DNA from: Escherichia coli
Lineage (GTDB): Bacteria > Pseudomonadota > Gammaproteobacteria > Enterobacterales > Enterobacteriaceae
Assembly: GCF_046105845.1 (NCBI RefSeq)
Contig: NZ_CP151004.1
Direction: 5' to 3' (one strand)
DNA length: 64,000 bases
Position 1 is the stretch's first letter, and every line of letters begins with the position of its first letter. Positions 979 to 44,454 of this stretch are shown here, in pieces. The notes below the pieces were generated by a model. The model was given only the letters and a program-made list of their open reading frames with translations, ran no database searches and was not told where the DNA came from. Position numbers and translations under genes: made by a program.

Positions 979-1008
979 CCCCGTCAACACCTCGTTGGCG
1001 GGGATTTT
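979..1008 (+). terminator. Rho-independent terminator-like hairpin after pqqL (CCCCGTCAAC / GTTGGCGGGG stem, then ATTTT)
   Basis: 10-bp stem with one G-U pair and short loop followed by T-rich tract, read from sequence. Confidence 0.5.
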
Positions 1009-1234
1009 AGCAATATTCGCTATTTTTATGTAATAATTTTATAAATGCGTTCAAAATAATAACCAAGTACTAATAGTGATATTTTAAGGTCTGATTTTTA
1101 CGTGATAATTCAGGAGGCGTAGAAAGTGCATAAAAATAACAGCATAAAACACCTTGCCATCACCCAAGAATTCAATAATGTATTGATTTTCAATGATAAA
1201 ATATTATTCGCATAATATCTCACGATAAATAACA

Positions 1235-1254
1235 TTAGGATTTTGTTATTTAAA
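1235..1254 (+). promoter_or_regulatory. GAD box (GadX/GadW/GadE-binding element) upstream of gadB
   Basis: Sequence TTAGGATTTTGTTATTTAAA about 80 bp upstream of gadB start; matches the conserved 20-bp gad box as I remember it. Confidence 0.65.
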
Positions 1255-1333
1255 CACGAGTCCTTTGCACTTGCTTACTTTATCGATAAATCCTACTTTT
1301 TTAATGCGATCCAATCATTTTAAGGAGTTTAAA

Positions 1334-2734
1334 ATGGATAAGAAGCTAGTAACGGATTTAAGGTCGGAACTACTCGATTCACGTTTTGGTGCGAAGTCTA
1401 TTTCCACTATCGCAGAATCAAAACGTTTTCCGCTGCACGAAATGCGCGACGATGTCGCATTTCAGATTATCAATGACGAATTATATCTTGATGGCAACGC
1501 TCGTCAGAACCTGGCCACTTTCTGCCAGACCTGGGACGACGAAAATGTCCACAAGTTGATGGATTTATCCATTAACAAAAACTGGATCGACAAAGAAGAA
1601 TATCCGCAATCTGCAGCCATCGACCTGCGTTGCGTAAACATGGTTGCCGATCTGTGGCATGCGCCTGCGCCGAAAAATGGTCAGGCCGTTGGCACCAACA
1701 CCATTGGTTCTTCCGAGGCCTGTATGCTCGGCGGGATGGCGATGAAATGGCGTTGGCGCAAGCGTATGGAAGCCGCAGGTAAGCCGACCAACAAACCAAA
1801 CCTGGTGTGCGGTCCGGTACAAATCTGCTGGCATAAATTCGCCCGCTACTGGGATGTGGAGCTGCGTGAGATCCCTATGCGCCCCGGTCAGTTGTTTATG
1901 GACCCGAAACGCATGATTGAAGCCTGCGACGAAAACACCATCGGCGTGGTGCCGACTTTTGGCGTGACCTACACCGGTAACTATGAGTTCCCGCAGCCGC
2001 TGCACGATGCGCTGGATAAATTCCAGGCCGACACCGGTATCGACATCGACATGCACATCGACGCCGCCAGCGGTGGCTTCCTGGCACCGTTCGTCGCCCC
2101 GGATATCGTCTGGGACTTCCGCCTGCCGCGTGTGAAATCGATCAGTGCTTCAGGCCATAAATTCGGTCTGGCTCCGCTGGGCTGCGGCTGGGTTATCTGG
2201 CGTGATGAAGAAGCGCTGCCGCAGGAACTGGTGTTCAACGTTGACTATCTCGGTGGTCAGATTGGGACTTTCGCCATCAACTTCTCCCGCCCGGCGGGTC
2301 AGGTGATTGCACAGTACTATGAATTCCTGCGCCTTGGTCGTGAAGGCTATACCAAAGTACAGAACGCTTCCTACCAGGTCGCTGCCTATCTGGCGGATGA
2401 AATCGCCAAACTGGGGCCGTATGAGTTCATCTGTACTGGTCGCCCGGACGAAGGCATTCCGGCGGTTTGCTTCAAACTGAAAGATGGTGAAGATCCGGGA
2501 TACACCCTCTACGACCTCTCTGAACGTCTGCGTCTGCGCGGCTGGCAGGTTCCGGCCTTCACTCTCGGCGGTGAAGCCACCGACATCGTGGTGATGCGCA
2601 TTATGTGTCGTCGCGGCTTCGAAATGGACTTTGCTGAACTGTTGCTGGAAGACTACAAAGCCTCCCTGAAATATCTCAGCGATCACCCGAAACTGCAGGG
2701 TATTGCCCAGCAGAACAGCTTTAAACATACCTGA
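1334..2734 (+). CDS. gadB: Glutamate decarboxylase beta (PLP-dependent), 466 aa
   Basis: Track ORF 1265..2734; internal Met ([19 protein letters not shown]...) preceded by TAAGGAG RBS; full-length recognisable GadB sequence. Confidence 0.97.
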
Positions 2735-2889: not shown

Positions 2890-4425
2890 ATGGCTACATC
2901 AGTACAGACAGGTAAAGCTAAGCAGCTCACATTACTCGGATTTTTTGCCATAACGGCATCGATGGTAATGGCTGTTTATGAATACCCTACCTTCGCAACA
3001 TCGGGCTTTTCATTAGTCTTCTTCCTGCTATTAGGCGGGATTTTATGGTTTATTCCCGTGGGACTTTGTGCTGCGGAAATGGCCACCGTCGACGGCTGGG
3101 AAGAAGGTGGTGTCTTCGCCTGGGTATCAAATACTCTGGGGCCGAGATGGGGATTTGCAGCGATCTCATTTGGCTATCTGCAAATCGCCATTGGTTTTAT
3201 TCCGATGCTCTATTTCGTGTTAGGGGCACTCTCCTACATCCTGAAATGGCCAGCGCTGAATGAAGACCCTATTACCAAAACTATTGCAGCACTCATCATT
3301 CTTTGGGCGCTGGCATTAACGCAGTTTGGTGGCACAAAATACACGGCGCGAATTGCTAAAGTTGGCTTCTTCGCCGGTATCCTGTTACCTGCATTTATTT
3401 TGATCGCATTAGCGGCTATTTATCTGCACTCCGGTGCCCCCGTTGCTATCGAAATGGATTCGAAGACCTTCTTCCCTGACTTCTCTAAAGTGGGCACCCT
3501 GGTTGTATTTGTTGCCTTCATTTTGAGTTATATGGGCGTTGAAGCTTCCGCAACCCACGTCAATGAAATGAGCAATCCAGGGCGTGACTATCCACTGGCT
3601 ATGTTACTGCTGATGGTGGCGGCAATCTGCTTAAGCTCTGTTGGCGGTTTGTCTATTGCGATGGTCATTCCGGGTAATGAAATCAACCTCTCCGCAGGGG
3701 TAATGCAAACCTTTACCGTTCTGATGTCCCATGTGGCACCGGAAATTGAGTGGACGGTTCGCGTGATCTCCGCACTGCTGTTACTGGGTGTTCTGGCGGA
3801 AATCGCCTCCTGGATTGTTGGTCCTTCTCGCGGGATGTATGTCACAGCGCAGAAAAACCTGCTGCCAGCGGCATTCGCTAAAATGAACAAAAATGGCGTA
3901 CCGGTAACGCTGGTCATTTCGCAGCTGGTGATTACTTCTATCGCGTTGATCATCCTCACCAATACCGGTGGCGGTAACAACATGTCCTTCCTGATCGCAC
4001 TGGCGCTGACGGTGGTGATTTATCTGTGTGCTTATTTCATGCTGTTTATTGGCTACATTGTGTTGGTTCTTAAACATCCTGACTTAAAACGCACATTTAA
4101 TATCCCTGGTGGTAAAGGGGTGAAACTGGTCGTGGCTGTTGTCGGTCTGCTGACTTCAATTATGGCGTTTATTGTTTCCTTCCTGCCGCCGGATAACATC
4201 CAGGGTGACTCTACCGATATGTATGTTGAATTACTGGTCGTTAGTTTCCTGGTGGTACTTGCCCTGCCCTTTATTCTCTATGCTGTTCATGATCGTAAAG
4301 GCAAAGGGAATACCGGCGTCACTCTGGAGCCAATCAACAGTCAGAACGCACCAAAAGGTCACTTCTTCCTGCACCCGCGTGCACGTTCACCACACTATAT
4401 TGTGATGAATGACAAGAAACACTAA
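2890..4425 (+). CDS. gadC: Glutamate:GABA antiporter (APC family), 511 aa
   Basis: Track ORF; ATG start; multi-pass membrane protein recognised as GadC; operonic with gadB. Confidence 0.97.
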
Positions 4426-20965: not shown

Positions 20966-20996
20966 AAAAAATGGCGCTTCTTAAAGCGCCATTTTC
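20964..20996. terminator. Bidirectional rho-independent terminator shared by yddM (+) and fdnI (-)
   Basis: A-run, ATGGCGCTT / AAGCGCCAT perfect stem, T-run; lies between convergent genes. Confidence 0.6.
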
Positions 20997-41349: not shown

Positions 41350-41919
41350 ATGAGCCGATTTATCCCCGTCGAATTACACCATGCCAGCCGTCTGTTAAAT
41401 CATGGCGCAACTGTCATGATCACCAGTTTCGATGAGCAATCCCAGCGGCGTAACATTATGGCAGCAGCCTGGTCAATGCCGGTGGAGTTTGAACCGCCAC
41501 GTGTGGCGATTGTGGTAGATAAATCGACATGGACCAGGGAGTTGATTGAACGTAATGGTAAGTTTGGCATCGTTATCCCGGGTGTTGCAGCAACTAACTG
41601 GACGTGGGCGGTGGGAAGTGTGTCGGGGCGTGATGAAGATAAGTTTAATTGCTATGGTATTCCGGTTGTGAAAGGTCCGGTGCTTGGTTTGCCGCTGGTC
41701 GAGGAAAAATGTCTGGCGTGGATGGAGTGTCGCCTGCTACCTGCGACTTCTGCGCAAGAAAAATACGACACACTGTTTGGCGAGGTAGTATCAGCAGCGG
41801 CAGACGCACGGGTATTTGTCGAAGGCCGCTGGCAGTTTGATGATGATAAACTCAATACACTACATCATTTAGGTGCTGGCACGTTTGTTACCAGCGGCAA
41901 GCGTATTACCGCTGGCTAA
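41350..41919 (+). CDS. yddH: Flavin reductase-like domain protein, ~189 aa
   Basis: Track ORF 41302..41919; start at internal Met MSRFIPVELHHASRLL... Confidence 0.88.
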   Translation: MSRFIPVELHHASRLLNHGATVMITSFDEQSQRRNIMAAAWSMPVEFEPPRVAIVVDKSTWTRELIERNGKFGIVIPGVAATNWTWAVGSVSGRDEDKFNCYGIPVVKGPVLGLPLVEEKCLAWMECRLLPATSAQEKYDTLFGEVVSAAADARVFVEGRWQFDDDKLNTLHHLGAGTFVTSGKRITAG

Positions 41920-41987
41920 AGAATCATATGCAGCGACCGGTTTTTTAAGCAATGTTTCCATATGAGTTAAAAGCACATTTTATTTCA

Positions 41988-42185
41988 CGATTGTATATTC
42001 TTAGTGAAGATTAATTTATCCTCACCAACATCATAGTAATTGCGTATTATAGCTTCATTGATAAAGCCCTGTTTTGTATAAAATGCGCGGGCGGCACTAA
42101 AATCGATATGGCTGGAGGTCTCTACTAAAAGTAGTCTTGCGTGATTGGGACAGGTCAAGAAAAAGCAGTTTTGCAGTTTTTTATT
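41988..42185 (-). pseudogene. GNAT-family acetyltransferase C-terminal fragment (no start codon, ~60 codons)
   Basis: Minus-strand stop-to-stop frame translates ...HARLLLVETSSHIDFSAARAFYTKQGFINEAIIRNYYDVGEDKLIFTKNIQS with the A..FY.K.GF GNAT motif; no Met and no upstream acetyl-CoA-binding motifs. Confidence 0.4.
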
Positions 42186-42531
42186 TCAGGGCACAGTTGC
42201 GAAAATTGAATCCCTTATGGACTAATGTGAGAAAATTCCGAGGTATGACTGTTTTGATATAGTGGACAATCAAGCGTCTCGAATTAACAATGAATTTCAG
42301 GTGCCAAGCCTTACAATTTGTAGCATGACGGATATAGGACAACATTAGGAAATCGGACAGAAAATTCATCATAATAAAATGACAACTTATCTCTTTCTCT
42401 CACTTTCTGAGAAATTTCACAAAAGTATAAACTAAGCCAATATGCCTTTATATATAAAAAATACTCATGCTTATTTTTATCGGAAAAATCCAAAATTTTG
42501 TCAAGACCATCAAAAATATCTTTATCATGAT

Positions 42532-43448
42532 CTATATGTACTCTTGATGATGGATCGCTGTGGCGAACTTTTCTGCGGTTAAATCAGCAGAACTGATATA
42601 ATATCTGACCGTCATTTCTGGCTCTTTCTTTTGTTCTGCTATTATGGACCGAAAGGAGACTGCAACGCATAATTTCTTCAGTCCTTTCCATTCAAACGTG
42701 AAATCAATAAGTTCATCAGGGACATCGCAAACAATATGAAGACGGATTTCTTCTCTGCCGTGACTCTTTTCACTAATGGCGTAACTGTCATGTTCTGGAT
42801 TATTTAATTCTTTCAGTGGAAATTTTTCCTCAAAGGCTTTATTAAGCCGCCCCTGATTTCCTTTTACAGCGAATAAATAATCACCGCCCTGTTTTGTATC
42901 TTCTCTGCAATATCTTTCTGGCAACCCATCGCATCAGTTGTGATGATTTTTCCTTTAATATCCAGCATGTTAAGAAGTTCAGGGATAGCTGTAATTTCAT
43001 TGGATTTCTCATCCGTCCTGATCTGTCCGATGACCAGACTGTGCATTGTTGAGAACGCACTAATGACATGAATCGCTCCCTTGCGGCGACTCTTGTCATA
43101 AGAATGCCGGAGTGTTTTTCCATCAATTGCGATGACGTCTTTATCATCTGAAGAATGGCAGTCACGCATCCAGTTAATAAAGCACTCGTGAAATTTTGCA
43201 GGACTGATACAGGATACAACTCTGGCAATGGTATCGTGAACAGGAATACCATTATCAAAATTACCATATTGCTTCAAAAAATCGAGATGTGTTTCCCCAA
43301 AATCCTCTATATCTTCCCAGCCTTCTGCACCCGAAATAACGGCACAAATAGTCAACAGTAGAATATCCGATAATTTATGTTCCACTTTCCAGGCTTGTCT
43401 GTAATCGGGGATAATAGAAATATGTCCCATCAATTTTTTAAGTTCCAT
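42532..43448 (-). mobile_element. ISAs1-family (H-repeat-associated, YdcC-like) transposase, inactivated: frameshift after ~codon 187 and 3'-truncated
   Basis: Two overlapping minus-strand track ORFs (42864..43448, 42532..42924) in different frames; together match an H-repeat transposase up to ...TAEKFATAI, then diverge/stop; frame change maps to a short T-run near 42892-42895. Confidence 0.8.
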
Positions 43449-43836
43449 TTTGTTCTCCTTAATTATGTAAGGAGTATTTGATCATGTATAAGCAATAAAA
43501 ACAGCTTCAGGAAATAAGGAATATCGCAATTTTTAAACATAAAATGCGAATCGTTCAATACAAAAAAGCAGCGTTGCGTAATCTTTCCCTGATTAAATAC
43601 GCTACCGCCCTACCCTGATGACATGATCTGCACTGCACTATCATATCGACATGTTTCTCTACATGCGAAAAGATGTTTTATTTTTGGATTATATTAAATT
43701 GATATTTCATATAAAAAACGAAATTACATCAATCATATAAATAGTTGTACCAACTTTAATTACTATTCATAGCAAACAAATGGATATCCAGTTAACTACG
43801 CCAGTGATTCATTAACATTAACCTCCGGCATTATTG

Positions 43837-44454
43837 TTAAATAATTTCATTCCTTTTTAATACTTCTTGTAATTTCGGTAACTGACATACAGCATCAGCA
43901 ATCGCACTGATATTCGTAGCATTATCCTGAAACCATTCATGCCCCGGCCCCCATGTGCGCATGGTGCAGAGATAACAGTCCACCAGCGTTAGTTGCTCAC
44001 CAAAGGCATAAGGTTCAGCGGTCAATTGTGAATTCAGCCAGATATAAAGCGATTTGCGATATTCAATTACATTCCTCTTTAACTGTTCAGGCGCGTCAGG
44101 AGCCCAACGCTCAGGGTAATCGGCGAAAGTGAATGTTGGATAGACATTAGCAACCAGCCAGACCAATAGCCGTTGAAACTGCTGACGTTCGGCGCGCCCA
44201 AGCGGTGGCGCAAGGTCCGGGCGACGATCGAGAACCATCAATGCAATCGCCGCTGTCTCCGTCATAATCTCGTCATTTTCCAGCGCCAGTGTCGGAATCT
44301 GACACAACGGGTTCAGGGTTTTCAATAACTCGCGTGAAGTTCCCTCGTGGTCAAAACCACTGACATCAACGAACTGATAAGGAATATCAGCCAGTGTTAG
44401 CATCAGCTCACTGATTGTAGAGCCCCATCCGGGTACGCCATACACCTTAATCAT
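43837..44454 (-). CDS. yncG: Glutathione S-transferase family protein, 205 aa
   Basis: Track ORF; GST-fold N-terminus (MIKVYGVPGWGST...). Confidence 0.88.
   Translation of the reverse strand: MIKVYGVPGWGSTISELMLTLADIPYQFVDVSGFDHEGTSRELLKTLNPLCQIPTLALENDEIMTETAAIALMVLDRRPDLAPPLGRAERQQFQRLLVWLVANVYPTFTFADYPERWAPDAPEQLKRNVIEYRKSLYIWLNSQLTAEPYAFGEQLTLVDCYLCTMRTWGPGHEWFQDNATNISAIADAVCQLPKLQEVLKRNEII

Follow-up and report, generated by a model that had tools for sequence, protein, structure and literature searches.

The promoters of gadA and gadBC in Escherichia coli K-12 are the closest described systems to the locus analysed here. Both carry the GAD box, a 20-bp consensus whose centre is at -63 relative to the gadA and gadBC transcription starts; 16 bp separate it from the -35 element downstream, a spacing that also holds for gadA (PMC2887963). 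The K-12 gadBC copy lies in the intergenic region between pqqL and gadB (Castanie-Cornet & Foster 2001; Ma et al. 2003; Castanie-Cornet et al. 2010). The proteins that occupy the box were studied at gadA by EMSA, DNase I footprinting, in vitro transcription and lacZ fusions (PMC2887963). MBP-GadE alone gave no protection and no binding; RcsB and GadE together protected -50 to -76, box included. The RcsB/GadE complex had the behaviour of a heterodimer, and its apparent Kd was ~10 nM. Neither binding nor GadE-dependent activation survived a G-to-C change in the left half of the box, which is conserved; the G hit by the M1 mutation is a conserved left-half residue that is critical for RcsB/GadE binding. 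RcsB and GadE also stimulated in vitro transcription of gadA with purified RNA polymerase. These heterodimer experiments concern gadA; they are extended to gadBC because the box there is identical and because of genetic evidence that PMC2887963 cites.

Further binding data are given in PMC4918353. There, the asymmetric GadE-binding site, characterised earlier, is given as TTAGGAttTTgTTATTTAAa, and Supplementary Table 1 lists a K-12 GadE ChIP-exo peak at gadBC (1570144-1570175, activator, -62.5 from the start). Deletion of gadE changed the expression of gadB by log2 -6.4 and that of gadC by log2 -5.9. The GadX/W motif of the same study is AKGKCTGWTWTTWWYMYVAK, which is unlike the GAD box; GadX peaks at K-12 gadBC are centred at +66, -184 and -225, with one further upstream, and a GadW peak at gadBC is not listed in the ChIP-exo tables. 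Repression goes through a separate RcsB box, which directly precedes the -10 and in gadB has C for G at its left end (PMC2887963). The left half of the GAD box itself, TTAGGA, is similar to a half-site for RcsB, one of the two subunits that bind there. Unlike the RcsAB/RcsB box, however, the GAD box is asymmetric and requires GadE as a partner.

In the window, i.e. the whole 64-kb stretch of DNA analysed here, positions 1235-1254 (+) read TTAGGATTTTGTTATTTAAA. These are the letters quoted in the earlier sequence-only reading of this DNA, and they are the same 20 letters as TTAGGAttTTgTTATTTAAa. Both G residues of the left-half TTAGGA are present (1238-1239). When both strands were searched with up to 3 mismatches tolerated, the element was found to be single-copy in the 64-kb window, and a second box of the gadA kind was absent from it. 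Dinucleotide-preserving shuffles of the window gave a mean of 0.03 chance matches at ≤3 mismatches, with any match at all in only 3 of 100 shuffles. Since the sequence is exact and unique, with gadB and gadC downstream and pqqL upstream, both the sequence and its gadBC context are real and far beyond chance. Alignment with the reference gadA and gadBC promoters showed the box to be identical in both K-12 copies, with no mismatch to the published element. With ≤1 mismatch allowed, the 15-mer GadE ChIP-exo consensus TTARGAWWWWAAATA is not found anywhere in the window. The box agrees with it over the left 10 bases only, and this consensus is therefore a poor detector of the canonical GAD box.

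The arrangement around the box is that of K-12 gadBC. Both have the same 20 bases in the same pqqL-gadB intergenic locus, and in both the box is 79 bp from the gadB ATG, 16 bp from the -35 and equally far from the mapped start. Window positions 1213-1346 (134 bp) equal K-12 base for base in a gap-free alignment, and they span the box, the 16-bp spacer, the -35, the RcsB box, the -10, the 5' UTR, the Shine-Dalgarno sequence and the first four gadB codons; the core promoter is without any difference. In the K-12 gadA promoter, which belongs to the acid fitness island, the 20-mer is identical and the ATG is likewise 79 bp away. The CTTGC core of the -35, the GATAAATCCTACTTTTTT block of RcsB box and -10, and the Shine-Dalgarno sequence are also shared with gadBC of the window, whereas the sequence on either side of the box differs, and GadX/W-type sequence is found ~45 bp upstream of the box in gadA as against ~130 bp in gadBC.

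Upstream of the intergenic region, the 3' part of pqqL (M16 metallopeptidase; 1-972, +) was recognised from an ORF that ends at 972 and from the pqqL annotation at the matching place in E. coli genomes. It is followed at 979-1008 (+) by a terminator-like hairpin, predicted by RNA folding, with a 10-bp G+C-rich stem (979-1003) and then AUUUU. The fold is strong (-18.6 kcal/mol, z = -5.2, with equally good folds in 0 of 200 shuffles) and is conserved among E. coli alleles, but it was not flagged by a simple terminator scan because the T-run is short. Its function as the pqqL terminator is probable, and it probably insulates gadBC against read-through from pqqL.

Downstream of the box, the putative -35 hexamer TTGCTT is located at 1271-1276 (+), so that the gap between them is exactly 16 bp (1255-1270). 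Its CTTGC portion is invariant when gadA and gadB promoters from five Escherichia lineages are aligned. The -10 was assigned to TACTTT at 1294-1299 (+), from the sequence and the 17-bp spacer, and CCTACTTTTTT is invariant across all aligned gadA and gadB promoters. Abutting the -10 is the repressing RcsB site, CGATAAATCCTA, at 1284-1295 (+), which was placed by alignment to gadA and whose exact borders are tentative; the gadA counterpart is GGATAAATCCTA. The combination TTGCTT-17-TACTTT scores only 8/12 on the sigma-70 consensus, and this weak match explains why the gadB promoter was missed when 960-1400 was scanned with that consensus. Such a weak match fits an activator- and RpoS-dependent promoter. 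The sites that the scan did report, 1187-1216 (+) and 1108-1081 (-), were not taken as promoters, as 2 were found and 2.2 were expected.

Transcription probably starts at 1306-1307 (+), 27-28 nt before the ATG, as judged by K-12 homology from the -63 position of the box centre and the -62.5 position of the ChIP-exo peak. A Shine-Dalgarno sequence, AAGGAG, is found at 1322-1327 (+), 6 nt before the ATG, and none of the aligned gad promoters departs from TTAAGGAGTT. The intact gadB gene (1334-2734, +) encodes a glutamate decarboxylase of 466 aa that is identical to K-12 GadB at 464 of 466 positions, the differences being Q5L and D153N, and that scores 691.6 bits on the glutamate decarboxylase equivalog TIGR01788 (cut-off 380). 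The start was set at the ATG at 1334, the TTG at 1265 being merely the first possible start in frame. The gene for the glutamate/GABA antiporter, gadC (2890-4425, +), is likewise intact, and its 511-aa product matches K-12 GadC at 509 of 511 residues and TIGR00910 with 1027 bits (cut-off 673). Rfam and tRNA scans of the window returned nothing near the GAD box.

Taken together, the exact 20-mer, the published geometry and the intact gadB-gadC pair downstream bear out the view that 1235-1254 is a conserved GAD box upstream of gadBC. In our judgement it is very likely that this is the canonical GAD box of the gadBC promoter, in its usual setting on an E. coli-type chromosome, and that RcsB/GadE switches on gadB and gadC from it. 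The sequence identity, the position, the conservation and the intact downstream genes are drawn from the window; the binding proteins and their effects are drawn from the K-12 literature, and we infer the same events in this strain. A GAD box at gadBC has already been described, and its presence here is ordinary.

Conservation of the box was examined across E. coli. The 441-bp pqqL-gadB junction (960-1400) was matched in 5,405 of 5,426 complete E. coli genomes. The 121-bp core promoter was matched in 5,404 genomes, with 3,756 records at ≥99% identity. A 30-nt query ending at the last box base gave an exact match of 28-30 nt in 5,364 of the 5,426 genomes; because the search requires only an exact 28-mer, at least the first 18 box positions are guaranteed in these. 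Six alleles (window, K-12, NRZ14408, SA186, DSM 101139 and O157:H7), picked by overall similarity across the identity range and blind to the box, were then compared column by column. None of the 20 box columns varies, versus 27 of 106 columns immediately upstream, and columns 1257-1346 are invariant in the same six alleles. In two more alleles with changes in the 121-bp core the box is exact, the changes falling at 1219, at 1255-1257 and in the -10 region. By these comparisons, the GAD box is under purifying selection relative to its flanks. In E. coli OkiPb01695, CCTATTTTTTT replaces CCTACTTTTTT, a C-to-T change in the -10 region, and the box is exact.

In a set of one genome per species, the exact 20-mer with gad context was found in Escherichia records only, namely E. 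albertii, E. whittamii, Escherichia sp. E1V33 and two records titled E. coli; a typical E. coli representative was not found among the exact 20-mer matches in this set. In every one of these Escherichia records the 20-mer is followed after 79-80 bp by a start of the gadA type (MDQKLL/MEQKLL) or of the gadB type (MDKKQV), and both flanks have diverged. As these loci were retrieved by exact box match, the invariance of the 20 columns between species is by construction, and the loci count as evidence for constant position and flank divergence only. In the records titled E. coli SCPM-O-B-8794 and E69, the divergence upstream of gadB far exceeds that of any sampled E. coli allele, and the T-run after the -10 has an additional T; these records probably represent separate species-level lineages of Escherichia.

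The sequence-only reading had also treated the match to the box as confirmation that the gadBC promoter is intact. The promoter is intact at the level of sequence: all known cis elements, from the GadX/W-type site in the invariant block 1085-1116 to the ATG, equal K-12, and gadB and gadC are full-length. It is the full alignment that shows this; the box by itself does not prove it. A 20-bp match is insufficient, because E. coli MSI001 keeps the exact box and yet has its promoter split by an IS5 element. In that strain (locus L019, 774-2072), an IS5-family element (ISKpn26-like) separates the exact GAD box from the -35. In E. coli 4/4 (locus L018, 788-1510), an IS1 replaces everything upstream of the Shine-Dalgarno sequence, and the next gene upstream is hipA. 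The methodological point is that an exact box does not guarantee an intact promoter, since IS insertions can split it.

The function of the gadBC promoter also needs gadE, rcsB and rpoS. All three genes are located outside the 64-kb window, and intactness is therefore a statement at the cis level only; in K-12, gadE is ~2 Mb distant from gadBC, and rcsB is likewise distant. Within this scope, the chromosome carries the complete cis-regulatory unit and the intact genes of the main glutamate-dependent acid-resistance operon. Such a unit is expected in nearly any E. coli, in line with its occurrence in ~99% of complete genomes.

The evidence for the activator at this box is as follows. Through the gap-free K-12 alignment, the 32-bp GadE ChIP-exo peak maps to 1228-1259 (unstranded) and encloses the box. 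An offset of 1976 between two K-12 genome versions, with a possible error of 1 nt, was used in mapping the peak. By analogy with K-12, GadE (LuxR family) would be made in acid or in stationary phase and would bind the box as a heterodimer with the response regulator RcsB. The box is asymmetric and 20 bp long; its centre lies ~62-63 bp before the probable start, and a weak -35 follows it after 16 bp. Acting from there as an activator, the heterodimer may switch on an otherwise poor, RpoS-associated promoter (-10 TACTTT). Activation would drive the decarboxylase GadB and the antiporter GadC, and hence glutamate-dependent acid resistance. At high RcsB, repression through the second RcsB box at 1284-1295 would be expected.

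GadX, GadW and GadE had all been named as proteins that bind the box. GadE is upheld, as one subunit of the RcsB/GadE heterodimer (PMC2887963); GadX and GadW are not, since their motif and the GadX peaks lie elsewhere, and the attribution should read RcsB/GadE rather than GadX/GadW/GadE. The older attribution amounts to a rival explanation, in which the box is primarily or also a site for the AraC-family regulators GadX/GadW, with activation from the box or competition with GadE there. This attribution has a basis in the literature, as PMC6128205 cites older work for GadX/GadW competition at the gad box, although the main model is now a different one. The gadBC control region is bound by GadX in vivo, and gadB and gadC fall modestly (log2 about -0.6) in a regulator-deletion table that is presumed to be that for gadX.

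Within the control region, however, the GadX/GadW-type sequence is a different one in a different place. The sole match to AKGKCTGWTWTTWWYMYVAK in the window at ≤2 mismatches is AGGTCTGATTTTTACGTGAT at 1087-1106 (+), with 1 mismatch, ~200-220 bp upstream of the start; the box at 1235-1254 has no match to the motif at this threshold. The GadX/GadW binding site and the GAD box thus share a control region and a regulon, and differ in sequence and in location. The block that contains 1087-1106, at 1085-1116, is invariant in the six E. coli alleles. Mapped to the window by gap-free alignment, the K-12 GadX peaks would fall at 1352-1392, 1102-1142, 1061-1101 and ~1018-1058, and none of them overlaps 1235-1254; those at 1061-1101 and 1102-1142 support the site at 1087-1106. 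Footprints of GadX/GadW in gadBC are reportedly ~220 bp upstream, and the sites described by Tramonti et al. in 2006/2008 are said to be 42 bp long; the placement given here uses the ChIP-exo tables and the motif. In addition, the model figure of PMC2887963 draws a GadXW box separate from the GAD box, and activation is <2-fold by GadX versus >50-fold by GadE. Against these observations, together with the missing entry for a GadW peak, we regard a GadX/GadW site at the box as unlikely, and prefer RcsB/GadE as its occupant; the site at 1087-1106 may contribute a smaller modulation.

The sequence between this site and the core promoter is unusual. Intergenic positions 973-1212 contain 15 substitutions relative to K-12, of which 13 are in 1117-1212 and two more nearer pqqL. 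Among 5,407 matching E. coli records, only 7 are ≥99% identical over the 441-bp query (960-1400), the closest being NRZ14408 (99.3%). The rare-allele stretch 1117-1212 partly overlaps the mapped GadX peak at 1102-1142. In GadB, Q5L results from CAA to CTA at 1346-1348, and D153N is encoded at 1790-1792. Leu5 was found in none of 8 other gadB-type sequences compared; GadA also has Leu at position 5, with the codon CTG. The idea that the 1117-1212 allele together with Q5L retunes GadX- or H-NS-dependent control, or the behaviour of GadB, in this lineage is speculative, and we give it little credence.

A further explanation holds that the 20-mer is kept mainly as an A+T-rich architectural element, for H-NS nucleation or curvature, and that GadE only counter-silences, without direct recruitment of RNA polymerase. 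The region is strongly A+T-rich, and gadA and gadBC are known targets of H-NS repression (PMC2887963). Yet architecture would not demand 20 identical letters of 20 across gadA, gadB and species while equally A+T-rich flanks drift. Moreover, it is a single G-to-C change that removes RcsB/GadE binding and activation at gadA, and the in vitro stimulation of gadA by RcsB and GadE took place with H-NS absent (PMC2887963). A mainly architectural role is accordingly very improbable. Finally, that the 20-mer is a functionless A+T-rich sequence present by chance has next to no probability: it does occur exactly in three unrelated metagenome-assembled genomes (Lentisphaeria and two Bacteroidales), judged to be chance matches with no gad gene in the inspected 140 nt downstream, but with 0.03 matches expected per window at ≤3 mismatches, the fixed position before gadB, the identity to K-12 and the near-universal occurrence in E. 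coli, position and conservation refute it.

Beyond the gad locus, collinearity with K-12 (1,573,378 down to 1,506,258) extends over the whole window. In all 5,426 complete E. coli genomes, identity to each third of the window stays below 99%; the highest values for the thirds are 98.8%, 97.9-98.0% and 98.2%, with different strains in each case, and K-12 is at 96.2-98.1%. It seems that the source lineage is poorly represented in the genome collection or that the region is a recombination mosaic.

Several local differences from K-12 were observed. At 41919-43839, ~1.9 kb of the window corresponds to ~6.4 kb of K-12 with rhsE-ydcD-yncI-ydcC (1,526,862-1,533,282), with one 1-kb match; the E. coli genomes that match best are 7-8 kb longer across this stretch, where they have genes for Rhs core and T6SS VgrG proteins. 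In the yddL/yddK/yddJ region (27262-29769), ~2.2 kb has no megablast match in the compared K-12 segment, save a 326-bp piece. At 61017, K-12 positions 1,509,241-1,509,686 (the hicA toxin gene and the start of hicB) are missing and the flanking alignments meet at one base, while ~330 bp of the K-12 fdnI-yddM interval is absent near 20,970-20,994. A selenocysteine insertion sequence (Rfam SECIS_3, 84 bits) is present at 24967-25025 (-), collinear with K-12 fdnG, and is the expected element for formate dehydrogenase-N.
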